Assembly: GCA_038232055.1 (NCBI GenBank)
Contig: JBBSIN010000001.1
Coordinates: 15,633-79,632 of the forward strand
Reading direction: 5' to 3'
Source: Mycobacteriales bacterium
GTDB lineage: Bacteria > Actinomycetota > Actinomycetes > JADGOV01
DNA length: 64,000 nucleotides
The translations under genes were made by a program, and so were the position numbers. Of this stretch, positions 4,509 to 50,636 are shown piece by piece (the first letter of the stretch is position 1; each line of letters opens with the position of its first letter). Under the pieces are notes generated by a model. It searched no databases. It was given only the letters and a program-made list of their open reading frames with translations, and was not told the DNA's origin.

Positions 4509-5719
4509 CGCGACTCGGCTGGTGGGACTGCTCGGCCGGCGCGAGCGGCGACATGTGCCTCGGCGCGCTCGCCGACGCCGGCGTACCGCTCGATCTCATG
4601 CAGTCGGCCATCGACGCCGTCGGCACCGAGCGGGTCACCCTCACCGCATCCGAGGTGGAGCGGCACGGCGTGGCCGCGACCAAGGTCGACGTCCACGCGC
4701 CGCGCACGGCGGTCGTGCGAACTTGGGCCAACGTCCGCGACGTCCTCGAGCACGCGAACATCGAGGAGCCGGTGCGCGCGGTCGCGCTCGGCGCGTTCGC
4801 CCGGCTCGCAGAGGCCGAGGCGGTCGCGCACCGGACGTCTCCGGAACTCGTGCACTTCCACGAGGTCGGCGGGCTCGACGCGATCGCCGACATCGTCGGC
4901 GCGGCCGCGGGCCTGCACGCGCTCGCGCTGGACCGGATGACCGGCTCGGCGGTGACGCTCGGCGGTGGCATGGTCCGCGGGGAGCACGGGCTGCTGCCGG
5001 TGCCGGCTCCGGCGGTGCTCACGCTGCTCACCGCGGCCGGTGCGCCGGTCGTGGGCGGCCCGGCGCCGTACGAGATGTGTACGCCGACCGGCGCGGCCCT
5101 GCTCGCCGCCACGGTGACCCGATGGGGTCCGCTGCCGCCGATGCGGATCTCCGCCGTGGGCACCGGTGCGGGCGGCCGCGACGTGGACGAATTGCCGAAC
5201 GTGCTGCGGCTCGTCGTCGGGCTCGTCGTCGACCCGGCGGCCGGCGAGGAGGCCGCGACGGAGTCGAGCGCCGAGCCGCTGCTCATCGAGACGAATGTCG
5301 ACGACCTCGACCCGCGGCTGTGGCCGGCGGTGCTCGCTCGACTGCTCGACGCCGGGGCGGCCGACGCCTGGCTGACCCCGATCCTGATGAAGAAGGGCCG
5401 GCCGGCGCACACCCTCTCGGTACTCGTCGCGTCCGACCGGGCCGACGCCGCCCGCCGGGTGATGTTCACGGAGACGTCGACGATCGGGGTCCGGGAGCGG
5501 CGGGTGAGCAAGCGCGCGCTCGAGCGCGACGTCGTGGAGGTGCACCTCTCCGGGATCCGGATCCGGGTCAAGACGGCCCGGCTCGACGGCGAGATCGTCA
5601 ACGCCTCCCCCGAGTACGACGACGTGGCGGCGGCCGCCGTACAGCTCGGCCGGCCGATGAAGGCAGTCCTCGCCGCTGCGGTCGCGGCGGCCTCCGGAAT
5701 CCTCGACGGGGGCGCGTGA
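4505..5719 (+). CDS. larC: LarC-like nickel insertion protein (DUF111)
   Basis: N-terminus VTRLGWWDCSAGASGDMCLGALADAGV (the D-C-x-x-G-x-S-G-D-M signature) and C-terminal LTPILMKKGRP...TIGVRER. GTG 4505 overlaps the larB stop. Confidence 0.75.
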   Translation: MTRLGWWDCSAGASGDMCLGALADAGVPLDLMQSAIDAVGTERVTLTASEVERHGVAATKVDVHAPRTAVVRTWANVRDVLEHANIEEPVRAVALGAFARLAEAEAVAHRTSPELVHFHEVGGLDAIADIVGAAAGLHALALDRMTGSAVTLGGGMVRGEHGLLPVPAPAVLTLLTAAGAPVVGGPAPYEMCTPTGAALLAATVTRWGPLPPMRISAVGTGAGGRDVDELPNVLRLVVGLVVDPAAGEEAATESSAEPLLIETNVDDLDPRLWPAVLARLLDAGAADAWLTPILMKKGRPAHTLSVLVASDRADAARRVMFTETSTIGVRERRVSKRALERDVVEVHLSGIRIRVKTARLDGEIVNASPEYDDVAAAAVQLGRPMKAVLAAAVAAASGILDGGA

Positions 5720-6306
5720 ACCTCGTCGTCGCCGCTACCGCATTCGGCCTTCTGCTGCCTGCGGAGCTGCCGGACAAGACGCTCGTCGCGACGCTGGTCC
5801 TCGCGACCCGCTATCGGCCGCGGCCGGTCTGGGTGGGAGTGTCGCTCGCGTTTGCCGTGCAGAGCCTGACCGCTGTCGTCGCCGGCGGGCTGGTGTCGGC
5901 GCTGCCGCGCCGGCTCGTGTTGGCGGCCACGTCCGTCCTCTTCGCGGTCGGGTGCTACGTGCTGCTCTTTCGCTCCGAGTCGAAAGGAGTCGACGAGCCG
6001 GCGGCGGCCGTCGAGGGGCCGCCCACCGCCCGCCGGATCGCCGGGACCAGCTTCGGCGTCCTGTTCGTCGCCGAGTGGGGCGACTTCTCGCAGTTGCTCA
6101 CCGCCGGTCTAGCGGCACGCTTTCGCGACCCGGTCAGCGTCTTCGTCGGCTCGTGGGCCGCGCTCGCCGTCGTCGCCGCGGTGGCCGTGACCGCCGGTCG
6201 CGGGCTGCAGCGGGTGGTACCGCTCGAGAAGGTGCGCCGGGTTGCTGGAGTGCTCTTCGGCCTGCTCGCGGTGGTCACGGCCCTGCAGGCCGCCGGAGTG
6301 GGGTGA
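5716..6306 (+). CDS. UPF0016 / GDT1-TMEM165 family cation (Mn2+/Ca2+) transporter
   Basis: Two E-x-G-D-(KR)-(TS)-type motifs (ELPDKT, EWGDFSQ) in a 196-aa polytopic protein. GTG 5716 overlaps the larC stop. Confidence 0.7.
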   Translation: MNLVVAATAFGLLLPAELPDKTLVATLVLATRYRPRPVWVGVSLAFAVQSLTAVVAGGLVSALPRRLVLAATSVLFAVGCYVLLFRSESKGVDEPAAAVEGPPTARRIAGTSFGVLFVAEWGDFSQLLTAGLAARFRDPVSVFVGSWAALAVVAAVAVTAGRGLQRVVPLEKVRRVAGVLFGLLAVVTALQAAGVG

Positions 6307-6343
6307 GTGACCAGCGGAGTGGGGTAAGTGACCTGGGAAGATC

Positions 6344-6425
6344 GTCCGAGTGCCGGTCCGAGTGCCGGTCCGAGGAGATCATGCTCCTTGACCTGCGGAT
6401 ATATGACTGCTGCTCCTCGGACTGC
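6344..6425. repeat. Composite short tandem repeat element: (GTCCGAGTGCCG)x2.5, spacer containing ACCTGCGGA and ATATGA, then (TGCTCCTCGGAC)x2
   Basis: Read directly from the sequence. GTCCGAGGAG and CTCCTCGGAC are reverse complements, giving an inverted array. A sibling element lies at 17781-17910. Confidence 0.6.
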
Positions 6426-6490
6426 TCCTCGGACCGAGGCGGGCGGGGGGGCAGGGCGCGGGCAGGCCCCGGCGTGGGCAGGGCAGACGC

Positions 6491-10375: not shown

Positions 10376-11725
10376 TCACCATGGCGACACCACGACGGCC
10401 TGTACGGCGAGGGCGACGACGGCCTGCGCGGCGAGCCACGACCGGCCGCGTCCCGGCAGCGCGGCCGTGGCGACGAGGATCCAGGGCGCGAACGGCAGCC
10501 AGATCCGCTCCACCTCGCCGCGGGAGAAGCCGCCGAGGTCACTTACCGCGACCGCCAGCAGGGCCGCGCCGACGAGCAGCCACAGTCGTCGGTCACGGAG
10601 CCGGCTCAGGCCCGCGGCCGCCGCTGGACCGACGAGCACGGCCAGCAGCGCGAGGTCGCCGAGCAGGAAGTACCAGTAGAGCCGCCCTGCGCCGTGCCCG
10701 CGCGACCACTCGACGGAGGTGGCGGCGACTCCGGCCGGCCACCAGAAGCCGGCGACGGCGAAGGCGACGAAAACGGCAGCGAGCCCGGCGGCGGCGACGG
10801 CGAGCACGCGTGGCCGTCGCAGGCCGACCGCGAGCGCCAGCGCCCCGAGCGGCAGCAGGCCGTAGGACAGGAACAGCATGCCGCCGAGCAGCAGTCCGGC
10901 CGCGACCGCCGGCGCCGCGGCCCGGCGGCCGGTCGCGTGCGCCGCCACCGCGAGCAGCGCAACTCCCCACGCCGAGACGCCGAGGAAGAGAGCGTCCATG
11001 CTCGTCGCCACCCAGAGCGCGGCGGGCGCCAGCACGAGGAAGGGCAGCGTGCGCCGCGCCGCCGCCTCCCCGTCGAGCGTGCGTACGGTCACCGCCACCG
11101 CGGCCGCGGCCGAGGCCCCCGCGGCGATCACCACGGCGGCCTGCCAACCCGGGCCGGGCAGCCCCAGCCACTCGAGCAGCTTCACGACGAGCACCGGTCC
11201 CGGCGGGTGCCCGCGGGTATGCGTGGAGTAGCTCGGCAGGTCGGTCACGAAGGTGCGCAAAAAGGCGCCGACGCCGGAATCGAGCGCCGGCAGGGTCGTC
11301 CGGTAGTCCTCCACCCGGGCCAGCGGAGCGCTGAGCCGGGCCCAGCCATCGCTCGCGGCGAGCGCCACCGCCCAGAGGGCCGTCGCGCCCCAGGACGCGG
11401 CGAGAAGCTGTCGCCAGCGCAGCCGCGCGGCGGCGACCGGGCCGAGACCCACGACGAGGGCGGCTACCGCGACCGCGGGAAGCAGCGACAGCCCGGGCCG
11501 CACGTCGACCTGACCGATGAACGGAGGAAGTGGCCCGACGAAGAGGTTCGTGCCCGGCTGGAGCAGCTGGCCCCATGCGACGGCAGCACCGATCAGCACC
11601 AGCCAGGCCGACACCGCAAGAACGACCGGACCACGCCGACGGGCGCCATCGCGGGCACGCGGAAACGTCGCGGCGTGCAGCGTCGCGACCATGGCGCGAG
11701 CGTAGGCGGAGATGGCGCCCGTCAC
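10376..11725 (-). CDS. Polytopic integral membrane protein, possibly a GT-C-type glycosyltransferase
   Basis: About 12 predicted TM segments, rich in Ala, Leu and Trp. Divergent neighbour of the GT2, DUF2064 and methyltransferase genes. The start codon is uncertain (GTG 11725 or ATG 11692). Confidence 0.45.
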   Translation of the reverse strand: MTGAISAYARAMVATLHAATFPRARDGARRRGPVVLAVSAWLVLIGAAVAWGQLLQPGTNLFVGPLPPFIGQVDVRPGLSLLPAVAVAALVVGLGPVAAARLRWRQLLAASWGATALWAVALAASDGWARLSAPLARVEDYRTTLPALDSGVGAFLRTFVTDLPSYSTHTRGHPPGPVLVVKLLEWLGLPGPGWQAAVVIAAGASAAAAVAVTVRTLDGEAAARRTLPFLVLAPAALWVATSMDALFLGVSAWGVALLAVAAHATGRRAAAPAVAAGLLLGGMLFLSYGLLPLGALALAVGLRRPRVLAVAAAGLAAVFVAFAVAGFWWPAGVAATSVEWSRGHGAGRLYWYFLLGDLALLAVLVGPAAAAGLSRLRDRRLWLLVGAALLAVAVSDLGGFSRGEVERIWLPFAPWILVATAALPGRGRSWLAAQAVVALAVQAVVVSPW

Positions 11726-16273: not shown

Positions 16274-16324
16274 GAGCGCGAATCTAGCGACTGCCGACCA
16301 CCCGATTCCCGCTAGGCTTCCGCG

Positions 16325-17539
16325 GTGAGCGAAGCGCGGCATCGCGTCGACAGCGAGGTGGGGCGCCTGCGGACGGTGCTGCTGCACCGGCCCGGCGCGG
16401 AGCTCAAGCGGCTCACCCCGCGCAACAACGACGAGCTGCTCTTCGACGGCATCCCGTGGGTGGACCGTGCACAGGCCGAGCACGACGCCTTCGCGGCCCG
16501 GCTGCGCGACCGTGGCGTCGAGGTCCTCTACCTCGCCGAGCTGCTCGCCGAGACACTCCAGGAGGCGGCGGCTCGCGAGCACGTGCTCGACAGCGCGCTG
16601 GTCCCCGGTGCGATCGGGCCGACGCTGGCGCGGGAGCTGCGCGGCTACCTCGGGGAGCTCACGCCGTACGACCTGGCCGAGGTGGTCATGGCCGGGATGT
16701 CGCACGAGGAGCTGCCGTTTACCGGCGGGGTCGTCGATCGGATGACCGGGGTCGACGACTTCGTCATCCGGCCGCTCGCCAACCTGCTGTTCACCAGGGA
16801 CTCCAGCGTGTGGGTCGACGCCCAGGTCGCCGTCACCCAGCCGTCGATGCCGGCGCGGCGTCGGGAGAGCGCGGTGACCGGCACGATCTACACCTACCAT
16901 CCGCGTTTCGCGGGAACGCCGTTGCTCTACCGCGGGCATCCGGACGACGAGGCCTGGCTGGAAGGCGGTGACGTGCTCGTTCTCGCGCCGGGCGTCCTCG
17001 CGGTCGGCGTCGGGCAGCGGACGACGCCGGCTGGAGTCGAGTCGTTTACGCTCCGCGTCTTCGCCGCGGGCGTGGTCCACACGGTGCTCGCCGTGCCGAT
17101 CGAGCAGGGCCGCGCGACGATGCATCTCGACACCGTCTGCACGATGGTGGACCGTGACGCCGTCGTGATGTACCCGCCGGTCGCCGACACGCTCGCGGCG
17201 TACGTCCTCACGCCCGCCGGGGCCGGCGGCGTACGGGTCGACGGGCCGGAACCCTTCCTGGTGGCGGCCGCCAAGGCGATGGGGATCGACACGCTGCGGC
17301 TCATCGACACCGGGCTCGATCCGATCACCGCGGAGCGGGAGCAGTGGGACGACGGCAACAACACGCTGGCGATCGCGCCGGGTGTCGTCGTCGCGTACGA
17401 ACGAAACACCGAGACGAACGCTCGTCTCGCCGACGCCGGCATCGAGGTCATCGCGATCGCGGGCAGCGAGCTGGGCAGTGGGCGCGGTGGGCCGCGGTGC
17501 ATGTCGTGCCCGATCCTGCGCGACCCGCTAACCGACTGA
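16325..17539 (+). CDS. arcA: Arginine deiminase
   Basis: 404 aa. Conserved ADI blocks ([32 protein letters not shown]) and the catalytic Cys near the C-terminus ([10 protein letters not shown]). Confidence 0.85.
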
Positions 17540-17566
17540 GCCCCCGGTCAGGCAACCTGCCGACGA

Positions 17567-17660
17567 CGGTCCTGACGACCGGTCCTGGCGACCGGTCCTG
17601 GTGACCGCCGCCACTTGACCGCCGCCACTTGACCGCCGCCACTTGACCGCCGCCGAACCA
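17567..17660. repeat. Tandem repeats: (CGGTCCTGRCGAC)x3 followed by (CGCCGCCACTTGAC)x4
   Basis: Seen directly in the sequence, in the 640-bp non-coding gap between the convergent arcA and anti-sigma-factor genes. Confidence 0.7.
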
Positions 17661-17780
17661 GCGATCTCCTTCGCTCGCCGTGTGGTGGCTGGGGATCGGT
17701 TCTGGAGATCGTTAGGCGACAATGGCGCACGCGAAGGAGATCGTTCAGCCGCCGGAGGTCGTCGGAGGGCGCGTCCCAGT

Positions 17781-17910
17781 GATCGTCCGAGGAGCTGTCC
17801 GAGATCGTCCGAGTGATCGTCCGAGGAGACGGCGGCGTACCACCTGCGGAAACGGCCTCGAAATTCCTCGGACACGTGCTCGGACACGTGCTCGGACAAG
17901 TGCTCGGACA
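17781..17910. repeat. Composite element: four GTCCGAG copies, spacer containing ACCTGCGGA, then four CTCGGAC copies (as CACGTGCTCGGACA x3.5)
   Basis: Same inverted heptamer-array architecture and shared spacer motif as 6344-6425. Confidence 0.65.
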
Positions 17911-17949
17911 ATCTTGGTGACGGCCGGCGCCTGTCACCGGACTTCGAAC

Positions 17950-18020
17950 CGAGCGGCTGGCCGCTCAGAGAAACCGCTCAGAGAAGCCGCCCACAAGCCG
18001 CCCAGAAGCCGCCCAAAGAA
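17950..18020. repeat. Tandem repeats: (CCGCTCAGAGAA)x2 and (AAGCCGCCCA)x3
   Basis: Seen directly in the sequence. Confidence 0.6.
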
Positions 18021-18179
18021 AAGGCCCGAGCGCCACCGACGGGGGATGCGGCAGCGCTCGGGCACTTCTAGGGTAACCCGTCGGCGGGAAATGTAACCCC
18101 GCCATTCGGGTCACGCTGTGGTGTCGCATGACGGCGGCGCCGGATTCCGTGGGGTGTCGCGTGGCGACGTGGCGCCGGG

Positions 18180-18656
18180 TCAGACCGCGGCGGCGACTTT
18201 GTCGGCGGATGCTAGTTCCACGGTCGCCCAGACCGTCGTCTCGCGCCCACCGCGGTCGCGCTGGACTCCCCACTCGCCGCAGAGCGCCTCGACGATGGAC
18301 AGGCCGCGACCACCCGTGGCGGACTCGGACACGCTTCGGAGGGCCGGCATCGTGACACCGCCGCCGTCGGTGACGGCCACGGACAAGACTGATCCGCCGA
18401 GGCGCCATTCCACGCCGACCGTGCCGTCCGGCAGGGCGTGCGCGTGCCGCAGCGCGTTGCCCATCAGTTCGGAGAGCACGATCATGGCGTCGTCGACGAC
18501 GGGCGCCGGTACCCCGGTCCGGCCGAGTTGGCCGCAGACGAGCTGCCGGGCGAGCGACGCGCTGTCCAGCGCGTACGGCAGGGACAGGACGGCCATGAAC
18601 CGTTCCACCCCCGTCGGGCAGCCTGTCAGAGTCAGTGAGCCCAGGGTTCCCGGCAT
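18180..18656 (-). CDS. Anti-sigma regulatory factor (RsbW-like Ser/Thr kinase, HATPase_c)
   Basis: ...MIVLSELMGNALRHA...GGRGLSIVEAL... The start could also be ATG 18596. No cognate anti-anti-sigma or sigma gene is adjacent. Confidence 0.6.
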   Translation of the reverse strand: MPGTLGSLTLTGCPTGVERFMAVLSLPYALDSASLARQLVCGQLGRTGVPAPVVDDAMIVLSELMGNALRHAHALPDGTVGVEWRLGGSVLSVAVTDGGGVTMPALRSVSESATGGRGLSIVEALCGEWGVQRDRGGRETTVWATVELASADKVAAAV

Positions 18657-18681
18657 TTGCTTTCTCAAAACGGTCTTTACG

Positions 18682-19476
18682 TCAGCGCCGTAGGCGCCGC
18701 AGTACACGCCGGGGGCGGTTCGTGATGATTGCGTCCACGCCCAGCGAGAGGCAGAGCTCCACGTCGTCGGGATCGTCGACAGTCCACACGTGTACGGCGC
18801 CGCCTCGGGCATGAACCCGGTCGACGTAGTGCGGATGACGGCGTACGACGGCGATCGACGGCCCGGCGATCGGCACCCGTGCCGGCAGCGAACCGTCGCG
18901 GTGGCGCACCGGCACCCAGCGCATGAGGAAGACGGTGGGCAACTCGGGCGCGAGCAGGTGTATTCGGCGCAGGCTCGTCGAGGAGAAGCTCATCACCCGG
19001 ACGTTGGCGCGGCCCGGCCGGGGACGATCCATCCCGAACTCCGCGAGCACGTCGACCAGCGCCCGCTCGACGAGGCCGGCGTACCGCGTCGGGTGCTTGG
19101 TTTCGATCGCCAGTTCCACCGGCCGCGCCGCCTCTTCGACGAGGCGCAGCAGCCGCTGGAGCGTCAGCACCTGCGTCCGGTCGCGGTCCGGCTCCTCCGG
19201 CTCGTCGTCTCGCGAGACCAAGCCCTCGGCATACCAGGACCCGAAGTCCAGCTCGGCGAGGTCGGCCAGCTCGAGTGTCGACACGACACCGCGCCCGTTG
19301 GACGTTCGGTCGATGCGCCGGTCATGGACGCACACGAGTACGCCGTCGCGGGTGAGCCGGACGTCGCACTCGAGCGCGCCGGAGCCCACGTCGATGGCCT
19401 GCCGGAAAGCGGCGAGCGTGTGCTCGGGCACCGCCTCGGAGGCCCCGCGATGCGCCACGACCTGCGGCACCGCCAT
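18682..19476 (-). CDS. glpQ: Glycerophosphodiester phosphodiesterase
   Basis: VVAHRGASEAVPEHTLAAF...ECDVRLTRDG..VCVHD (GP-PDE motifs). 264 aa. Confidence 0.75.
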   Translation of the reverse strand: MAVPQVVAHRGASEAVPEHTLAAFRQAIDVGSGALECDVRLTRDGVLVCVHDRRIDRTSNGRGVVSTLELADLAELDFGSWYAEGLVSRDDEPEEPDRDRTQVLTLQRLLRLVEEAARPVELAIETKHPTRYAGLVERALVDVLAEFGMDRPRPGRANVRVMSFSSTSLRRIHLLAPELPTVFLMRWVPVRHRDGSLPARVPIAGPSIAVVRRHPHYVDRVHARGGAVHVWTVDDPDDVELCLSLGVDAIITNRPRRVLRRLRR

Positions 19477-19532
19477 GACCGGTGAGTTCAGGACCGGCAC
19501 TGCTGCCCCCGTATGGGCAACGTCACGGGAAT

Positions 19533-20198: not shown

Positions 20199-21562
20199 CT
20201 GGTGCGTCGTTCCAGCGGTGCCAGGGCGACCGTCGCGGCAGCCGCCACCATGAAGGAGAGCAGCGAGGCGCTCATCCAGGTCGCCGGGGCGAAGCCGACG
20301 GCGTCCGCCAGGCCGGTCCACCGGTCCCGCCACCATCCGATGTAGCCGGGGTTGACGAGCTGGTACGCCGCGAAGCCGAGCGCCCACGGCAAGATCATCA
20401 GCCAACGGGAGGGGGCGTGCTCGGAGACGTCCCACGAGCCGCTGCGGCGCAGCAGGTAGTAGTCGACGACGAAGACGGCGAACATCGGCACGAACACCGA
20501 GCCGAGCAGGACGAGGGAGTTGTAGTAGTCGCCGATGTCGAGGGTGAGCGCGGCCAGTGTGGCGAGCCCGCCGACCACCACGGCGAGCAGCCGGCGGTCG
20601 AGCAGCGGGCGCAGGTTCTGCACGGATACGACGGTCGAGTACGTGTCGGCAAAGCACTGGTCCAGCTCGCGCAGGACAAGGACGCCGAACGCCAGCCAGC
20701 CGACCGGCACGGCGATGAACGCGGCAAACACGTCGTGCTGCAGCACCCCGGCGTCGGCGCTCGCGCTGACCACCGTGGACAGCGCGATGAGCCCGAGCGC
20801 GTAGTAGGCGACCTGCGTGACGGCGTAGCCGCCGACCGCGCCGAGAAAGGCCGACCGCACGGTGCGCGAGTGTCGCGAGTAGTCGCTGGCGAGCGGGACC
20901 CAGGAGACCGCGACCGCGATCGCGAAGTCGGCAGCGAGCCAGAAGTCGCCCCAGGACCCCCTGGTCAGCGACGGCAGCGGGTTGCGGAGCAGCTGAACGT
21001 AGAGGTACGCCGTCGCGACGAGCACGGCACCCAGCGCGTACCGGCGGAGCACCCGGACCGCGCCGAGGGGTCGCAGCGCCATCAGCGTCGCGAGCGTCCC
21101 GGCCGCCACGACGTAGGGCCAGCGAGCGCCGTGCCACGGCAGCAGCTGCTGGGCCGCCGAGGTGATCACGACGATCTCGAAGATGGTCCAGCCGACGAGC
21201 TGCAGCACGTTGAGGACGGTCGGCAGGTACGACGCGCGCACCCCGAGCAGCCCCCGCAGCAGCACCATGGACGGTGCGCCGGTGCGCGCCCCCGGCACCG
21301 CGGCCAGCCCGATCAGCAGCGAGCCGAGGAGCGTGCCGACGACGAGCGCGACGAACGCCGCCACGAGTGAGAGCTGCGCGCCACCGGTCGGGGCGAGCAG
21401 GTAGATCGCGCCGACCGGCCCCAGCAGGCTGACCCCGAGGTTGCCCCAGAGCCCGAGCTGGTCGAGCAGGCTCAGCGTCCGCGGGGCCGGCTCGGCGAGG
21501 GTGTGCGGCGCCTCGGCGGCGCTGCGTCGGTTCCGGGTGTCCTGCTCGACGACAGTCGACAT
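20195..21562 (-). CDS. cytX: NCS1-family permease, putative hydroxymethylpyrimidine transporter CytX
   Basis: 455-aa protein with 12 TM segments, of the cytosine/purine permease type. Sits between a TPP riboswitch and tenA. Confidence 0.7.
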   Translation of the reverse strand: MSTVVEQDTRNRRSAAEAPHTLAEPAPRTLSLLDQLGLWGNLGVSLLGPVGAIYLLAPTGGAQLSLVAAFVALVVGTLLGSLLIGLAAVPGARTGAPSMVLLRGLLGVRASYLPTVLNVLQLVGWTIFEIVVITSAAQQLLPWHGARWPYVVAAGTLATLMALRPLGAVRVLRRYALGAVLVATAYLYVQLLRNPLPSLTRGSWGDFWLAADFAIAVAVSWVPLASDYSRHSRTVRSAFLGAVGGYAVTQVAYYALGLIALSTVVSASADAGVLQHDVFAAFIAVPVGWLAFGVLVLRELDQCFADTYSTVVSVQNLRPLLDRRLLAVVVGGLATLAALTLDIGDYYNSLVLLGSVFVPMFAVFVVDYYLLRRSGSWDVSEHAPSRWLMILPWALGFAAYQLVNPGYIGWWRDRWTGLADAVGFAPATWMSASLLSFMVAAAATVALAPLERRTR

Positions 21563-21563
21563 G

Positions 21564-21656
21564 CGCGCTCCCTACGCCGGCATTACCCGGACAGGTTCGG
21601 CGGTCGGCGACCCGGTCAATCGCCCTCTCAGCCCGGTCGGTCCGAGCTCCCGCGAA
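21564..21656 (-). promoter_or_regulatory. TPP (THI-box) riboswitch
   Basis: Minus-strand RNA ...ACCGGGCUGAGAGGGCGAUUGACCGGGUCGCCGACCGCCGAACCUGUCCGGGUAAUGCCGGCGUAGGGAGCGCGCAUG carries the canonical CUGAGA and ACCUG..CCGGGUAAUGCC..GGGA blocks. The SD-like GGGAG sits inside the closing helix, 7 nt from the AUG. Confidence 0.8.
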
Positions 21657-21681
21657 TGTCAGCCAGCGTACGCCGCGCCGG

Positions 21682-34923: not shown

Positions 34924-35031
34924 TGATGCCTCCTTGCTAGGAACGCTCGAGTTGGCAGGAACGCTCGCGCTTGGCAGGAACGCTCGCGGCTAGTGTTCAC
35001 CCCGTCGACAGCACACGCCGCGGGAGGGTGC

Positions 35032-46424: not shown

Positions 46425-46497
46425 GCGCTCGTAGCTCAACGGATAGAGCATCTGACTACGGATCAGAAGGTTGGGGGTTCGAGTCCCTCCGAGCGCG
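46425..46497 (+). tRNA. tRNA-Arg (anticodon ACG), no encoded CCA
   Basis: Manually folded. Acceptor GCGCTCG/CGAGCGC, anticodon loop CUACGGA, T-loop TTCGAGT. Confidence 0.85.
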
Positions 46498-46658
46498 CTG
46501 AGTAAGTCCAGGTCACAGCGTTGCAGCGTTGCGCTCCGGTCACCGAGAGCCGCTCGCTTCTACCGGATCTTCTACCGGATGACGCGAGACGAGCCGGTAT
46601 GAAGCAGTAGAGAACTAGACGGAGCCCCCGCTCCGCTGTCTCGCAGGCCCCGAGCGAA

Positions 46659-48607
46659 ATGCAAGTGCGCATACGTGTGTCGCAGCCGGCGTGTACAACC
46701 GATGGCGTGCCTTGGGAGCCCACACCCGAGCAGCAGGCCATCATCGAACACGATTTGGGTCGTCACGCGCGCGTGCTCGCCGGGCCCGGCACGGGCAAGA
46801 GCGCCACCGTCATCAGGATGATGCTCCGAGCGGCCGAGCAGCTCGGTCGCCGAGGCAAGCTCCTCACGTTCACGCGGGCGGCCACAAACGAGCTCCGCGA
46901 GAAGGTCGCAGAGCATCCAGAGCACCTGGCGACGCCGAGCACGGTGCACTCGTTCTCGATCGCAACCCTTCTCGCCAACGAAGGAACCAGCGGCCTGCCG
47001 GAGCCGATTCGGCTTGCCGACGATTGGGAGTGGTCGGAGCTGATCCGCCAGCACCTCAAGGTCTTGGTGGACTGCGACGTCCGAATGATCGACCGGGCGC
47101 GGGCAGAGATGGCGTCGAACTGGGAGTCCCTCGAGCCAGCCGAAGACCCAGACCTGCCCGAGGACGTGCGCAACCGATTCGCCGGGATCTGGGAGCACCA
47201 CCGTCGGGTCTTCGGCTACGCGTTGCTCGCCGAGCTGCCGTTTCGACTTCTTCGCGCGCTCGAAGACCATCCCGATCTCAACATCGGGGACTGGGAGTAC
47301 CTGGTCGTGGACGAGTACCAGGACCTCAACCAGTGCGATCTGTCTGTCCTGAGGCAGATCACCCACCGCGGCCGAGTCCTGGTGGCCACGGGCGACGACG
47401 ACCAGTCGATCTACTCGTTCAGGCGGGCGCACCCAATCGGCATCCGGCGCTTCGTTACCGACGACTATCCGACGGCGGCTGATCTCACGCTCACGATCAG
47501 CCAGCGATGCGCAACACAAGCGCTCGCATGGGCTCGACACGTCATCGAAGGGCTACCCGGGAGACCGCCACGGCCGGCCCTGAACCCCGCGCCGCATTGC
47601 GTGGAGGGCGTGGCCCGCTACCTTTGCTTCCCGAGCTGGCCACGGGAAGCGGACGGAGTGGCGCGCCTCGCCAAGTGGCTCATCGACAACCAGGGATCGC
47701 CCCCGAAGACATCGCGGTGATGTTCCGAAGCAACTTCAACAACGCTTGGTCGACGCCGTTGACGGAGCGACTGGAGCACTACGGCGTGCCAGTCATCAAC
47801 GCCGGAGCGGTCGCCGAGATGCTTGCCGATCCCGAGAATCGGCGATTGCTCGCCCTGGCACGACTCGTCGTTAACCGCGCGGACTCCCTGGCGTGGTGGA
47901 CACTTCTTCACCTAACACCGGGCGTCGGGCCCGTGGTCCGTGACCACTTCTACGACGGCGCCGAGCAGCACGGGCGCACCTTCGCGGGCCAACTCCTCAC
48001 CGAGCACGCGGATGACTTCCAGGGCCTCGGCGGAGCTTCGGCAACTCGGGTTCGCACCACCGTCAACGCGGCCATGGCGGTGACCGAAGCGGTCGACATC
48101 GAGGGAGCTGACCTTGGCGACGCGGGGTGGGGAGAGTGGCTGGTCGGCAATGCTGACGTGTTCGGCGGATGCAACGAGGACTTCGCCGAGCTCTTGCGGG
48201 ATCTTGATGGCTTGGTCGACAGGACGGAAGGTCTCGGGCGATTTCTCGGTCAGATCCAGCCCGTCGGCACGGACCTTCGCTCCGGTCGAGCCGCGGGCGC
48301 GGTCCGCCTCATGACTATGGCGAGCTCAAAGGGGCTCACTGTGAAGGCGGCGATCATCGTGGGCGTCGAGGAAGGCGTTGTGCCGCTCGCTGACCGCGAT
48401 CCCGGTGAAGAACGTCGCCTTCTCTACGTCGCGATGACCCGTGCCACTGACAACCTCTACGCAACTTGGTCGGGCCAGCGCACCGGCCCCACCGCTCGAA
48501 CCGGGGCTCCCCGTGTCGGCGCCGGACGCAATCGATCGCCCCTGCTTACGCATGGGCCGGTCCAGTCTGAGCACGGCAACGCCTACCTGGATGCCCTCGG
48601 CGCTTAG
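46659..48607 (+). pseudogene. UvrD/Rep-like SF1 helicase, frameshifted at a C5 run (~47700-47704)
   Basis: Frame A carries the Walker A (AGPGTGKSAT) and the LVVDEYQDLN motif. Frame B continues with GIAPEDIAVMFRSN and a UvrD_C block (...VGVEEGVVPL...LLYVAMTRA). The switch sits at GGGATCGCCCCCGAAG. Confidence 0.6.
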
Positions 48608-48650
48608 ACCCTCGGAAGGTCAGCGGACTGCGGGTTGACCGGCCCGTACA

Positions 48651-49583
48651 TCAGCAGCTGGCCGCTTGGTCCCCCGCCCGGCCTCTCAGGAGCCTCCAGA
48701 TCGGATTCGTGACGCTTCCAAAGACGTAGCGCTGCGCCTTCAGGAAGTTGAGGTTCTGGAAGCACTCGAGCGACGGCGTGCCATCGGCGTTTCGGAACCA
48801 CCCGTCCACGCCGCCGCGACTCGCCGTGGTCGTGCCGCCTCTGCCCGATTGGAGAATCAACACGTGCGAGTCATCGACAGGCACGTCGGCGAAGACGCTG
48901 ACTCGCCCGAACCGGTCGCGCTCGGCCATGGCCTTGACGGGCGTGTCGCTGGTGATCAGTTCGTCTCGGTCGAAATCCAACAGGGTCCACGCGAAGTCGT
49001 TGAGGAGTTCGGCGGTGTGTTGGCGGAGCGCGAGGACGACGCCGCCACCGACGATGCCTCTCGGCTCGCTACCGCCCAAGCGTGGTCCCCGAATGAGGTC
49101 GATCTGTTCGCGCGTGAGCGCTTGAACCTCGTCGTCCGTGAGTTCGGCGCGGACCCGGTCCAGAGTGGACGAGACGAAGCGCCGGAGGGCGTCGCCATGG
49201 CTCGGCACGCGCAACTGCTGGGCTGCCACGAACGCAGCAACGTCCTCGCGTCGCTCGTCAGTGAGCGCATCGACCCCTTGGGTGGCGAGAAGACGGAAGG
49301 CCGGCGCAGCGCAACTCTCGATGTTGGACAGAAGCCGTTCGACTGCTGTCCGGGCGAGGATCGGGTGGTCAAGGTCGTAGAGCCCCTCGGCGTAGGCGAC
49401 GTCCTTCGGCCTTGCCGTGACGTACTCGCCGGTCGTCTTGTCGAACACCCCGATCTGGCGCTTCGAGCCGAACTGGCGCAGGTACCACTGTGGAACGAAG
49501 TGATGCTTGCGCGGCTCCTGAATGACCGGGGCTTGAGGACGCTCTCCCGGTTGTGAGCGCCGTGCGGAGCGATCAGTGCTCAC
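48651..49583 (-). CDS. DUF4238-like protein (paralogue 1)
   Basis: Conserved N-terminal HHFVPQWYLRQF motif. The GTG at 49583 is the only in-frame start before the motif and overlaps the upstream stop (GTGA). The Arg-rich 5' extension in the track ORF is rejected. Confidence 0.5.
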   Translation of the reverse strand: MSTDRSARRSQPGERPQAPVIQEPRKHHFVPQWYLRQFGSKRQIGVFDKTTGEYVTARPKDVAYAEGLYDLDHPILARTAVERLLSNIESCAAPAFRLLATQGVDALTDERREDVAAFVAAQQLRVPSHGDALRRFVSSTLDRVRAELTDDEVQALTREQIDLIRGPRLGGSEPRGIVGGGVVLALRQHTAELLNDFAWTLLDFDRDELITSDTPVKAMAERDRFGRVSVFADVPVDDSHVLILQSGRGGTTTASRGGVDGWFRNADGTPSLECFQNLNFLKAQRYVFGSVTNPIWRLLRGRAGDQAASC

Positions 49584-50563
49584 GCGGGCTGACGACCTTG
49601 CTGCCGAACGACCCGCTTCTGCACACGAATCTCGTCGCCCTCGGCCAGGGCACCGAGCGTCTCGACGCCCCACCTCGGCCGCTCGAGGAGGTCTCCGATC
49701 TCGATCGGCGGGTCGTCGGGGTGCTGGAAGATCCATCGGTGAGCGCCGCTTGCGACGAAGCGATTGATGATCTCGGCCCGCTTGGGCTTGGCATCTACGA
49801 CCCGTTCGTCTCCGGAGAGGAGCAGGGCGATCGCGCGTTGCCTGTCGATCGGCATGTAGATGGCATCTGCGCTCGCAATGCCGAGAGGGTGCGTCTCGAG
49901 GTCTCGATCTGGGCGGACCCATAGCGCGACGGGCTGGTCGCTGACGAGGAGGGCAGGCTCGTCGAATCGCAGTAGGCGGACCCGGCGACGGAAGTAGAGG
50001 TCGGGATGGATGCCGTTGAGTGCAAGCAGACCCATCTGCTGCACCGCCGCCGACTGCGAGGGCACGACCTTCCAGTCCGAGGTCAGGAGTTGCTCACGCC
50101 ATGCTGCGACCGCCGCGTCATCGAATGCCCGTCCGTCCTTCTTGAGTTGAGGCCGCAGGCGTTCCGTCGTCAGCCGGGGCCGTAGCTCCTCCTTCGCCAT
50201 CAGGGTGGCGAGCTCGGAGATCTCCTCGCGAAACGACCATCCACGAACTGCCTGAAAGGCAACGAAGAGCATCAGGTCGAACCGATCCTGGTCGGTCAGG
50301 TTGAGTTCGTCCCGTGCGAACCTATCGAACAACCGCGAGGCTCGACCCTCGAAGTCCGCCAGCGAGATCTCGATCTGATTGCTGGGAGCAAGGTGGCTGA
50401 AGGCGGGATCAATGTCGACGTCGTAGAAGCCGGCCTCTCGGCACGCGCGCGTGACCGTCATCGGGATGCGAACTCCGCCGGCGCGCGGAGTGGCCAGCAG
50501 GCGCTCGCGCTCGCCGGCGAACCGACGGAGCAGCATCTGCGGGACGATGTGATCGCGGGCCAT
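49580..50563 (-). CDS. DUF4238-like protein (paralogue 2)
   Basis: N-terminus MARDHIVPQMLLRRFA. 327 aa. Translationally coupled to paralogue 1. Confidence 0.55.
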   Translation of the reverse strand: MARDHIVPQMLLRRFAGERERLLATPRAGGVRIPMTVTRACREAGFYDVDIDPAFSHLAPSNQIEISLADFEGRASRLFDRFARDELNLTDQDRFDLMLFVAFQAVRGWSFREEISELATLMAKEELRPRLTTERLRPQLKKDGRAFDDAAVAAWREQLLTSDWKVVPSQSAAVQQMGLLALNGIHPDLYFRRRVRLLRFDEPALLVSDQPVALWVRPDRDLETHPLGIASADAIYMPIDRQRAIALLLSGDERVVDAKPKRAEIINRFVASGAHRWIFQHPDDPPIEIGDLLERPRWGVETLGALAEGDEIRVQKRVVRQQGRQPA

Positions 50564-50636
50564 CCGTCGTCAGTGTGCCGCGGAGTTCACCGCGCTCACC
50601 CGATGATTTCGTGTGTTCCCGGAGCCTCGGCGTTGC

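Follow-up and report, generated by a model that had tools for sequence, protein, structure and literature searches.

Tandem arrays, palindromes and a conserved hairpin RNA in the convergent gap downstream of arcA in a Mycobacteriales bacterium

The 640-bp convergent gap (17540-18179) between the stop of arcA and the end of an anti-sigma-like gene, analysed here within a 64,000-nucleotide stretch of DNA (the window), carries at its right end a strand-specific RNA structure that is conserved in relatives together with its -10 box, and on its left several arrays of short tandem repeats and two long palindromes that lack coding signal and are absent from relatives. On balance we consider it probable, if narrowly so, that a conserved small-RNA and terminator module was joined here by non-coding DNA that owes its growth to a dispersed palindromic element together with local tandem duplications. 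The gap is thus a natural example of how a compact high-GC genome can quickly grow by ~0.5 kb of non-coding sequence where two genes converge, and the most solid by-product of the analysis is a candidate small RNA family with an anti-Shine-Dalgarno-like C-rich loop, absent from Rfam and with a fixed address by arcA/DUF5926.

The gap and its tandem arrays

The left flank of the gap is arcA (16325-17539, plus strand), encoding an arginine deiminase (Pfam ADI, E=2.8e-112) and displaying phased GC3. The gene is apparently leaderless, as TAGGCT is followed by 6 nt and then by the GTG start, and a -10-like box lies immediately 5' of the arcA start in most loci. The right flank is a convergent minus-strand gene for an anti-sigma-like HATPase_c_2 protein of 138 aa, which probably extends over 18180-18596; its start was picked so that the product agrees in length with the 138-aa orthologue of the related locus L081, and exactly this product is recorded in Logan. 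A reading of this DNA made from the sequence alone had named both genes in this way, and Pfam bore it out on both. It had also seen no credible open reading frame between them, which agrees with the GC content by codon position, flat at ~0.65-0.75 over 17500-18160 and strongly phased in both flanking genes, and with a Pfam search of the gap ORFs that returned no match.

Tandem Repeats Finder (TRF) identified six arrays in 17540-18179 with periods of 13, 14, ~12, 12, 13 and 11 bp, scores of 53-106 and units that are 92-100% identical, and the several repeat families of the sequence-only reading are therefore real. However, tandem arrays account for only 248 of the 640 bp (39%), so the gap is not filled with them as that reading had it. 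Dinucleotide shuffles of the gap (n=200) gave a mean TRF coverage of 0.6 bp and a maximum of 45, and coverage amounts to 1.0% for the remainder of the window and 1.05% for related actinobacterial loci totalling 996,716 bp. The arrays of these related loci mostly have periods that are multiples of 3, and those with a period of 10, 11, 13 or 14 number 7 per Mb as against 4 in the gap; the narrow 11-14 bp range of periods is unusual against this background and is not predicted by plain slippage. Of the ten non-coding arrays that the window contains, all but one are found either at the gap or at one other locus, described below as copy 1.

Array A (17562-17607) consists of 3.1-3.2 copies of a 13-mer (GACGACCGGTCCT / CGGTCCTGGCGAC, 92% matches) and is joined through a common GACCG to array B (17602-17654), in which 3.8 copies of the 14-mer TGACCGCCGCCACT are 100% identical (TRF score 106); these are the 13-mer x3 and 14-mer x4 noted earlier. 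The two following arrays are formed by a GATCGTCCGAG-type unit of ~12 bp in 4.9 copies (17772-17827) and by 3.7 copies of CTCGGACACGTG (17867-17910). Array E (17961-17990) holds 2.3 copies of the 13-mer CCGCTCAGAGAAA and array F (17984-18015) 2.9 copies of the 11-mer AAGCCGCCCAC, which had been misread as a 12-mer x2 and a 10-mer x3. Arrays A, B, E and F were recovered both by TRF and by repeat search. The units of E and F are the same but for indels, and on the minus strand the two arrays directly prolong the U-tract of the hairpin RNA (CUUUUCUUUGGGCGG CUUCUGGGCGG CUUGUGGGCGG CUUCUCUGAGCGG UUUCUCUGAGCGG). In total, extra tandem copies make up ~186 of the roughly 510 excess bp in the gap. CRISPR arrays also place short repeats in non-coding DNA; however, they have repeats of ~23-50 bp with unique spacers of similar length, whereas the units of the gap are 11-14 bp long, contiguous, spacer-less and of several unrelated types, with no cas genes nearby, and we agree with the earlier reading that this is not a CRISPR array.

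In six relatives the gap downstream of arcA measures 128, 160, 90, 62, 3 and 15 bp and holds no arrays, the ArcA proteins of these relatives being, in the same order, 85, 81, 80, 83, 78 and 79% identical to that of the window. Since relatives at 78-85% ArcA identity have gaps of 3-160 bp without repeats, the ~470 bp at 17550-18015, which comprise the tandem arrays and the two long palindromes, are lineage-specific, and the gap is indeed unusual for a compact genome, as had been suspected. No ArcA relative closer than 85% identity was found in the databases; the best match in a scan of genome contigs with ArcA was 72% identical, and closer relatives were obtained solely from metagenome contigs by protein search. 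When the gap was compared with 86 loci by BLAST, the hairpin alone matched.

The sequence is supported by a single independent assembly (Logan, run SRR24807094), in which contig L091 equals window positions 17796-19271 save for one SNP and reproduces arrays E and F, and contig L089 is exactly identical to the copy-1 locus. Copy numbers are the same in both assemblies over 17796-18015 and at copy 1, the SNP lying elsewhere. An assembly artefact is thus ruled out by the Logan contigs for 17796-18179 and for copy 1, with arrays A and B (17562-17654) falling outside the coverage of the second assembly.

A conserved strand-specific RNA structure

The sole part of the gap that is conserved in relatives is a hairpin at 18012-18073 on the strand opposite arcA, recovered by the covariance model R1 (65.6 bits). 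Its stem-loop runs from 18063 to 18024, with a 15-bp stem and a 10-nt loop CAUCCCCCGU, and is followed by the U-tract CUUUUCUUU from 18023 to 18014. In the stem alignment 98% of 405 cells are paired and compensatory changes occur in 9 of the 15 pairs; the covariation score is 0.493 versus 0.244 for shuffles (0 of 500 reach 0.493), and slid controls score at most 0.15. The minus sense has 30 G.U pairs and the plus sense 0, with 31 mismatches on the latter. Together, the compensatory changes and the minus-sense G.U pairs establish a conserved secondary structure. The loop is invariant across the family, with the consensus (G)YRUCCCCCGUC(R) and its five Cs, the C-rich loop of the window being AUCCCCCGUC. 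Promoter-like elements lie upstream on the same strand (18070-18097): a -10 box TACCCT at 18075 to 18070, 6 nt ahead of the first paired base, and a -35-like GTTACA/TTACAT at 18097 to 18091. A TANNNT box ending 6-9 nt upstream of the stem is conserved in 27 of the 28 members, and many have TTGnnn ~17 nt further upstream.

The hairpin is present in 28 of the 87 sequences searched, always as exactly one copy per locus and beside arcA, and never elsewhere in the ~1 Mb searched. The carriers include Nocardioides, Marmoricola, Actinomadura, Spirillospora and uncultured Mycobacteriales- and Frankiales-like lineages. Among them are the cultured Nocardioides zeicaulis CCM 8654 (L041), Nocardioides aequoreus NRRL B-24464 (L030), Actinomadura chibensis NBRC 106107 (L023) and Actinomadura craniellae LHW63021 (L073), and the hairpin is kept whether its upstream gene is DUF5926, anti-sigma or TenA.

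An alternative is that the hairpin is a terminator only, possibly a bidirectional one, for the converging genes, with the TANNNT box being incidental. In every locus the hairpin lies between converging genes, in 18 of the 28 loci it is found 3-167 nt past the stop of a same-strand SEC-C/DUF5926 gene, and on the minus strand of the window the 15-bp GC-rich stem leads into CUUUUCUUU as in an intrinsic terminator, which a simple terminator scanner had missed because the loop is longer than 8 nt. The U-tract is weak in many relatives. However, an invariant 10-nt loop is needless for termination, a -10-like hexamer lies at a fixed distance in 27 of the 28 loci, and in 9 loci the hairpin stays next to arcA where DUF5926 is gone and the upstream gene is a different one. 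Moreover, 36 loci keep the DUF5926-arcA pair without a hairpin, indicating that it is not generally needed for termination of the DUF5926 gene. We therefore regard a role in termination alone as doubtful.

The conserved structure and its -10 box rather make the hairpin RNA a candidate small RNA. It would be ~50-60 nt long and be transcribed from a putative start on the strand opposite arcA, with its own -10 box TACCCT, and its stem and U-tract would double as an intrinsic terminator. The RNA may also halt convergent transcription from arcA. We infer that it could act in trans, its C-rich loop pairing with G-rich ribosome-binding sites in the manner of 6C; the window has two other CGACGGGGG sites, both in Shine-Dalgarno regions. 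Pairing of the loop with the arcA ribosome-binding site was rejected, as arcA appears to be leaderless and would thus offer no such site.

The closest known counterparts are the 6C small RNA of Actinobacteria (RF01066; PMC6486639) and CcsR1-type small RNAs with a C-rich loop (RF02791). Like these, the hairpin RNA is a small hairpin RNA of high-GC bacteria whose C-rich loop is complementary to G-rich Shine-Dalgarno sequences, its independent transcription being putative. Whereas 6C has two loops, each of at least six Cs, the present RNA forms one hairpin only, with five Cs in its loop, and unlike both 6C and CcsR1 it has a fixed genomic address beside arcA or DUF5926. It neither matched the RF01066 model nor showed two C-rich hairpins, and Rfam gave no match at gathering score or at E<=10, the best model being CcsR1 with 17 bits versus a gathering score of 65.

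A second hairpin, GUGACCCGAAUGGCGGGG-UUACAUUU-CCCGCCGACGGGUUACCC, was predicted by minimum-free-energy folding at 18070-18113 on the minus strand, in the 3' region of the anti-sigma-like gene, and is probably the terminator of that gene. It overlaps the promoter-like region of the small RNA and is not conserved in L081. The right end of the gap (~18012-18113) would represent an old conserved module, composed of the hairpin RNA and the upstream terminator hairpin of the anti-sigma-like gene.

Palindromes and the GTCCGAG/CTCGGAC composite

The sequence-only reading passed over not only the conserved hairpin RNA at the right end of the gap but also two palindromes, H2 (17645-17762) and H3 (17765-17925), which occupy a large share of the gap outside the tandem arrays. 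H2, detected by inverted and direct repeat search and by folding, has arms of 30 nt (17645-17674 and 17731-17760) that are 77% complementary, carries GGAGATCGTT twice and folds on the plus strand with -62.9 kcal/mol (z=-4.8). H3, delimited by TRF, heptamer positions and inverted repeats, is copy 2 of a GTCCGAG/CTCGGAC composite, which that reading had correctly recognised in the gap. Four GTCCGAG spaced by 12, 10 and 12 bp form its left array (17772-17827), a centre of 41 nt with ACCTGCGGA follows (17826-17866), and four CTCGGAC with a period of 12 bp form its right array (17867-17910). With arms of 27-37 nt and folding energies of -88.9 (plus strand, z=-6.5) and -87.2 kcal/mol (minus strand), z being about -6.5 on both, H3 is a hairpin of the terminal-inverted-repeat kind.

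Copy 1 (locus 6294-6434, composite itself 6344-6434), characterised by TRF, sequence, alignment and the Pfam domains of its neighbours, sits in another convergent gap, between a GDT1 gene (plus strand) and a PRC-DUF2382 gene (minus strand). A 21-bp tandem duplication at 6294-6333 spans the last codons and the stop of the GDT1 gene, and the composite consists of GTCCGAGTGCCG x2.6 on the left (6344-6374), a 41-nt centre with ACCTGCGGA at an offset equal to that in copy 2, and CTGCTCCTCGGA x2.1 on the right (6410-6434). These two are the only copies in the 64-kb window; they lie 11 kb apart, both in convergent gaps, and have in common the heptamers, the 12-bp phase, the length of the centre and the ACCTGCGGA offset. 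Their arms hold 3/2 heptamers in copy 1 and 4/4 in copy 2, and none of the 13 deviates from the motif, in contrast to the diverged spacers and 41-nt centre. The likeness between the two loci is confined to the heptamers, 19-24 nt and one 9-mer. Perfect heptamers among diverged spacers hint at a sequence-specific constraint that a neutral model would leave unexplained.

The composite was found in none of the 86 related loci; the closest relative lacks copy 1 in its orthologous gap, and it lacks copy 2 as well. Plasmid and phage collections, searched with the gap by BLAST, gave nothing, and no similarity to the composite emerged from plasmid, phage or metagenome searches: two JGI metagenome contigs that matched GTCCGAG-N5-GTCCGAG ... 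CTCGGAC-N5-CTCGGAC were rejected as unrelated low-GC hairpins downstream of 23S-rRNA-IVS-protein genes. We could not place the repeat architecture of the composite in any described family.

Two copies of a lineage-specific composite with long hairpins in convergent gaps raise the question of whether a non-autonomous mobile element has transposed here, be it the ~470-bp insert in its entirety or each palindrome together with the arrays beside it. Like REP/BIME, BOX elements of Streptococcus pneumoniae and MITEs, the composite is dispersed, extragenic at 3' ends between convergent genes, and forms a very stable hairpin with a variable number of internal modules, the difference in heptamers per arm recalling the variable module numbers of BOX; the arrays also cluster around the composites. 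Unlike in these families, the arms are tandem arrays of a non-palindromic heptamer in 12-bp phase, and only two copies are known (64 kb). No direct repeat indicative of a target-site duplication was seen at the composite ends, the flanks of the relatives are too diverged to define boundaries, and neither terminal repeats with such a duplication nor a transposase or RAYT gene were recognised. The limited likeness of the two loci also speaks against an element. Neither copy 1 nor any other part of the window has a counterpart to arrays A, B, E and F or to palindrome H2, and the copy-1 21-bp duplication and array F stem from local sequence (a gene end and a terminator tail, respectively), indicating that these were made in place. 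We therefore find it unlikely that the insert, or either palindrome with the arrays next to it, is mobile.

Less likely still, the arrays could be protein-recognition sites, with the 12-bp-phased GTCCGAG heptads arranged directly and then inverted around the ACCTGCGGA centre and serving in conjugation (as chromosomal clt-like sites of a TraB/FtsK-type translocase), in partition (as a centromere-like site) or in transposition (as subterminal transposase sites). This would fit the perfect heptamers with diverged spacers and centre, the phase fixed at 12 bp and the equal inner distance of 41 nt at both loci; moreover, the equal stability of the composite on both strands suggests a DNA-level palindrome and not a strand-specific RNA. 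A precedent exists in Streptomyces, where TraB binds the direct 8-bp repeats of clt regions and the chromosome has been proposed to carry clt-like sequences (PMC4447253, PMC11571958). The composite is likewise actinobacterial and non-coding, with a short motif (7-8 bp) in direct orientation, four GTCCGAG at 10-12-bp spacing preceding four inverted ones. Its motif is 7 bp long and differs in sequence from the published clt repeats. In contrast to clt, it has an inverted second array and several unrelated arrays alongside. Furthermore, a single protein cannot account for all six unrelated units of the gap, regulatory operators would be oddly placed in a convergent 3' gap, and no TraB/FtsK-like, AICE, Rep, Par or transposase gene was seen in the window. 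The absence of plasmid or phage matches, and of the composite from the 86 related loci and, save for the low-GC hairpins, from JGI metagenome contigs, weighs against recognition sites as well. A conjugative element near the tRNA at 46425-46497 was considered and rejected, as the low-GC island following this tRNA contains a split UvrD-like helicase gene and DUF4238 genes but no TraB or AICE genes.

A more specific version, in which the heptad arrays are recognition arrays for a DNA-binding or -translocating protein, for instance a binder of clt-like chromosomal transfer sites or of centromere-like sites, and the surrounding 11-14-bp duplications are the footprint of the DNA transactions of this protein, is improbable to a slightly greater degree. 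If true, the duplications would have arisen from staggered cleavage and fill-in or from stalled forks, and the gap would mark a chromosomal cis-site, of a kind new for uncultured Actinomycetota; likewise, if bound by a protein, the heptamer composite would define a new cis-element. Finally, although ORFs of 124-129 aa occur on both strands (e.g., minus-strand ORFs 17528-17911 and 17548-17937) and its predicted fold is more stable than those of shuffles (plus strand, z=-4.6; minus strand, z=-5.2), it is very improbable that the gap encodes a repetitive small protein or a long structured non-coding RNA, given the flat codon-position GC, the periods of 11, 13 and 14 that disrupt any reading frame, the lack of Pfam and Rfam matches, the conservation in relatives of nothing but the hairpin, and a fold stability that is due to the palindromes and equal on both strands.

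Probable growth of the left part of the gap

In the explanation that we prefer, growth of an intergenic region around palindromes and duplications, the left part (~17550-18015) would be non-coding DNA that is specific to this lineage and separates the arcA stop from the hairpin. It would have grown in two ways, through the arrival of hairpin-forming palindromic DNA, including the second GTCCGAG/CTCGGAC copy, and through repeated local tandem duplications of 11-14 bp, seeded from local sequence. We infer slipped-strand mispairing or template switching around the hairpins as the route of these duplications. Signs of duplication in situ are the 92-100% identity of the array units, the motif common to arrays A and B at their junction, the single unit behind E and F and its continuation of the U-tract, and the inclusion of the GDT1 stop in the copy-1 duplication. 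Because it lies beyond two converging stops and the small-RNA terminator, the left part may be only weakly purged by selection. Most likely the arrays have no sequence-specific function and would evolve neutrally; at most they may act as hairpins at the 3' end of the arcA transcript. Intergenic growth would here have come about through hairpin elements and duplications of 11-14 bp.

Mycobacterial VNTR/MIRU loci have units of ~40-100 bp, usually of one family per locus. The copies in the gap resemble those of VNTR loci in being head-to-tail, near-identical and intergenic, with copy-number change by slippage being likely, but differ in that six unit families of 11-14 bp are packed within 460 bp. 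The gap may serve as a strain-typing locus. Intergenic runs of short units that contain a heptamer, at several or many loci per genome, are also known from Beggiatoaceae and cyanobacteria, where the heptamer TAACTGA is contiguous, usually located upstream of genes and present in hundreds per genome (PMC4679880), whereas the GTCCGAG heptamers have 5 nt between them, face an inverted array and are located in 3' gaps.

A search within the gap for larger-scale periodicity or a hidden long duplication found neither. Seven GATC sites occur within 180 bp of the gap, a clustering that is accounted for by the repeated units themselves and was discarded as a separate signal. Repeat search further revealed an imperfect 20-nt direct repeat (TGTGGTGTCGCATGACGGCG / TGGGGTGTCGCGTGGCGACG, 80% identity) with its copies 33 bp apart at 18117-18169, which could be due to chance.

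The conserved hairpin RNA beside arcA

In the 640-bp gap (17540-18180) between arcA (16325-17539, plus strand) and the convergent anti-sigma-like HATPase_c_2 gene (18180-18596, minus strand), the conserved hairpin RNA at the right end is a more valuable result than the repeat block to its left. This hairpin (18024-18063) was found again directly after arcA in many loci and, aligned in the minus sense, has a 15-bp stem and an invariant 10-nt loop, CAUCCCCCGU. Over 27 sequences, pairing was kept in 98% of 405 pair cells with compensatory changes in 9 of 15 stem pairs, and the covariation score was 0.493 compared to 0.244 in shuffles (0/500 reaching 0.493) and at most 0.15 with the pairing partners slid. 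A 16-sequence set held 30 G.U pairs in the minus sense, whereas the same positions in the plus sense gave 31 mismatches and no G.U, an asymmetry pointing to the minus-strand RNA, opposite the arcA strand, as the molecule under selection.

Searched with a covariance model, 28 of 87 sequences gave exactly one copy each, and ~1 Mb yielded no other match; carriers include, by record title, Nocardioides, Marmoricola, Actinomadura, Spirillospora and uncultured Mycobacteriales- and Frankiales-like bins. The copies lie in the window (18012-18105, minus strand) and in the related loci L005, L007, L008, L016, L018, L019, L023, L025, L027, L030, L031, L035, L041, L043, L044, L047, L051, L063, L069, L073-L075 and L080-L084. 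In 27 of the 28 members a TANNNT hexamer ends 6-9 nt upstream of the stem's first paired base; the remaining member is truncated by its locus end. Many members have TTGnnn ~17 nt further up. The hexamers are similar in style to the boxes before apparently leaderless arcA genes. In most loci (window 16300-16327; arcA starts in ~25 loci) arcA appears leaderless, with a TAGGCT/TAGAGT-type -10 box 6-7 nt before ATG/GTG and no Shine-Dalgarno sequence. In the window, the hairpin stem is followed by CUUUUCUUU.

The Rfam search of the gap matched nothing; for the hairpin, no Rfam 15 family scored above threshold (best CcsR1, 17 bits against 65, likewise a C-rich-loop small RNA), and we regard it as a candidate new small-RNA family absent from that release. 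The C-rich loop of 6C RNA was shown to pair with G-rich ribosome-binding sites (PMC6486639). By analogy, we infer that the hairpin is transcribed independently as a small RNA of ~50-60 nt and that this RNA would use its C-rich loop to pair with such sites, in the manner of 6C- or CcsR-type RNAs while belonging to neither family. Besides the hairpin itself, the 9-mer complementary to the loop, CGACGGGGG, occurs at only two window sites, 5704-5712 and 18608-18616 (minus strand), in the ribosome-binding regions of the GDT1 and anti-sigma-like genes; this supports loop pairing weakly, since G-rich words are expected upstream of start codons anyway. A plain terminator is a possible but doubtful alternative. 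For 18 of the 28 loci, a same-strand SEC-C/DUF5926 gene convergent with arcA ends 3-167 nt before the hairpin; in nine (including the window, L081, L082 and L084) the DUF5926 gene is gone and the hairpin still stands beside arcA, and 36 further loci have the gene without the hairpin. Further along the window, a TPP riboswitch (21552-21663, minus strand) lies upstream of cytosine/purine-type permease, TenA and GDPD genes, which are oriented toward the anti-sigma-like gene and the gap.

Extent and anatomy of the repeat block

Species representatives included no close relative (best ArcA identity 72%), and a protein search gave metagenomic relatives with 78-85% ArcA identity. Downstream of arcA, the gap measures 128 bp in L081, the closest relative (85% identity, gene order as in the window), 160 bp in L082 (81%), 90 bp in L083 (80%), 62 bp in L084 (83%), 3 bp in L085 (78%) and 15 bp in L086 (79%), with arrays in none of the six. 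Given these short, array-free gaps, and since a BLAST search of all fetched loci with the gap sequence matched only 18022-18068, ~470 bp at roughly 17550-18015 are specific to the lineage of the window.

TRF, run on 16500-19500, called six arrays in the gap, bearing out the repeat families described in the sequence-only reading. Its 13-mer x3 and 14-mer x4 were recovered as array A (13-mer x3.1-3.2, 17562-17607) and array B (perfect 14-mer x3.8, 17602-17654), while what it took for a 12-mer x2 and a 10-mer x3 are really array E (13-mer x2.3, 17961-17990) and array F (11-mer x2.9, 17984-18015); the conserved hairpin had escaped it. The other two are a degenerate ~12-bp array built on GATCGTCCGAG (17772-17827) and CTCGGACACGTG x3.7 (17867-17910). 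Neither the arrays nor the composite described below are CRISPR, as that reading had also held. Arrays take up 248 of the 640 bp, compared to a mean of 0.6 bp (maximum 45) when the gap was dinucleotide-shuffled 200 times, 1.0% of the remaining window and 1.05% of the related actinobacterial loci (996,716 bp). In these ~1 Mb, 140 of 185 arrays had periods divisible by three and only 7 had periods of 10, 11, 13 or 14, against four in the gap alone, and no other 640-bp stretch contained more than two distinct short arrays. The gap arrays resemble ordinary slippage repeats in behaviour; their crowding and diversity are exceptional.

About 20 unique bases directly after the arcA stop precede array A, which passes into array B via a common GACCG. 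Two long palindromes follow, H2 (17645-17762; 30-nt arms; -62.9 kcal/mol, z=-4.8) and H3 (17765-17925; -88.9 and -87.2 kcal/mol on the two strands, z ~ -6.5), then ~35 bases with two small hairpins, and finally arrays E and F, indel variants of one unit, which on the minus strand prolong the U-tract of the hairpin RNA. Compared with shuffles, folding of the whole gap is more stable on either strand (z=-4.6 and -5.2), and the gap has no larger hidden periodicity. Removal of the extra tandem copies shortened it by only ~186 bp, leaving ~454 bp, and thus palindromes and unique stretches also contribute to its extra length relative to L081 (128 bp). The GATC density peak of the window, seven sites in 180 bp (17650-17830; ~1 expected), falls within the repeated units GGAGATCGTT and GATCGTCCGAG.

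Two contigs that Logan had assembled independently from run SRR24807094 matched the window. One equals 17796-19271 except for a single SNP, and an assembly artefact at 17796-18179 is essentially excluded; it terminates within the GTCCGAG array, as expected of k-mer assemblers, which leaves arrays A and B outside this confirmation. The SNP (A/G at 18679, upstream of the anti-sigma-like gene) points to two closely related strain variants. The other contig covers the copy-1 locus of the composite described below, equal over 501 aligned bases.

The GTCCGAG/CTCGGAC composite

The window as a whole has no excess of GTCCGAG (29 matches, 29 expected), yet 13 of the matches are concentrated in two clusters, 6344-6434 (copy 1, between the GDT1 and PRC-DUF2382 genes) and 17785-17909 (copy 2, within H3). 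Both consist of direct heptamers in 12-bp phase, exactly 41 nt from the innermost GTCCGAG to CTCGGAC with ACCTGCGGA at equal offset within this centre, and inverted heptamers in 12-bp phase; both occupy convergent gaps immediately past a plus-strand gene. Their local alignment scored 33 compared to 20 +/- 2.5 in shuffles, spanning only 19-24 nt. On these shared features, the composite appears to be a small dispersed family. The two loci hold 9 of the 10 non-coding arrays of the window. Immediately before copy 1, a 21-bp tandem duplication (6294-6333; CGGAGTGGGGTGAGTGACCAG / CGGAGTGGGGTAAGTGACCTG) takes in the last GDT1 codons and stop, indicating that duplications arise in place from local sequence.

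The 85% relative (L081/L090) has neither cluster; its arcA gap measures 128 bp, and 753 bp of unrelated sequence without repeats separate its GDT1 and PRC genes. The latter stretch (L090 3594-4347), to which the composite corresponds in position, has a called 154-aa ORF without Pfam family that may be a gene remnant. The composite or an analogue (heptamer x3 direct, then x2 inverted) was found in none of 86 related loci, and the strict pattern matched only two JGI metagenome contigs, both with unrelated low-GC hairpins. These (L087 349-419, L088 2099-2168) are long hairpins of GTCCGA/GTCCGT hexamer runs just 3' of 23S-rRNA-intervening-sequence-protein genes, periodic and convergent in architecture.

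In behaviour the composite is comparable to intergenic palindromes of the REP, BIME or BOX type, but their defining traits (target-site duplications, many copies, a cognate enzyme) were not seen in the window, and a mobile MITE- or BOX-like element bearing the arrays is an unlikely source of the block. Adjacent arrays filling convergent gaps were also found elsewhere in Actinomycetota bins, showing the phenomenon to be rare rather than unique. At L058 (8709-8933), two 32-mer arrays (x2.5, x4.4) nearly fill a 248-bp convergent gap, every unit containing the palindrome GCCGA-N-TCGGC in a REP/BIME-like cluster. L044, another bin, has two adjoining 22-mer arrays in a 3' intergenic region (11309-11529); the first unit (GTCCCCCGTCGACCCGGGTCTT, x5.6) contains UCCCCCGUCG, a word of the hairpin-RNA loop, and the region gives a weak covariance-model match of 24 bits.

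Origin of the gap

We somewhat favor a composite origin of the gap, with an old functional module at the right end and ~470 bp of young non-coding DNA, grown by palindromes and duplications, on the left. The module would combine a small RNA or terminator with the terminator of the anti-sigma-like gene. The left part may have grown by arrival of hairpin-forming palindromic DNA, one composite copy included, and by repeated 11-14-bp tandem duplications through slippage or template switching near hairpins, growth that would be tolerated because of its position beyond two converging stop codons. Against this reading stand the perfectly conserved heptamers amid drifting spacers and centre, the narrow range of periods and the lack of a traceable origin for over half of the added sequence.

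The arrays could instead be protein-recognition sites, like the clt sites of Streptomyces, clusters of direct 8-bp repeats for a TraB-type translocase (PMC4447253; PMC11571958); no such genes lie within the window and six unrelated units make a single binder unlikely, leaving this reading improbable. A coding product or long non-coding RNA from the gap is very improbable: codon-position GC shows strong phasing in arcA (to ~17500) and the anti-sigma-like gene (from ~18180) and is flat between, and none of the three long gap ORFs has a Pfam family, the flanking genes being assigned to ADI and HATPase_c_2, in agreement with the absence of a credible ORF noted from sequence alone. Overall, the observation made from sequence alone holds, and its interpretation is borne out in part. 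The repeat block is probably striking recent intergenic growth of low function, with the conserved heptamer arrays as its one unexplained feature.

Elsewhere in the window, a region of lower GC (46425-50600; 0.64-0.66 against ~0.71) begins directly after a tRNA (46425-46497) and encodes a UvrD-like helicase split over two ORFs (46659-47717, 47507-48604) along with two DUF4238 genes; it may be an integrated element or a defence island. A 19-mer (AGGAACGCTCGCGTTGGC) repeated x2.7 at 34939-34988, in the divergent promoter region flanked by gene starts at ~34924 (minus strand) and ~35033 (plus strand), looks like operator or iteron sites.
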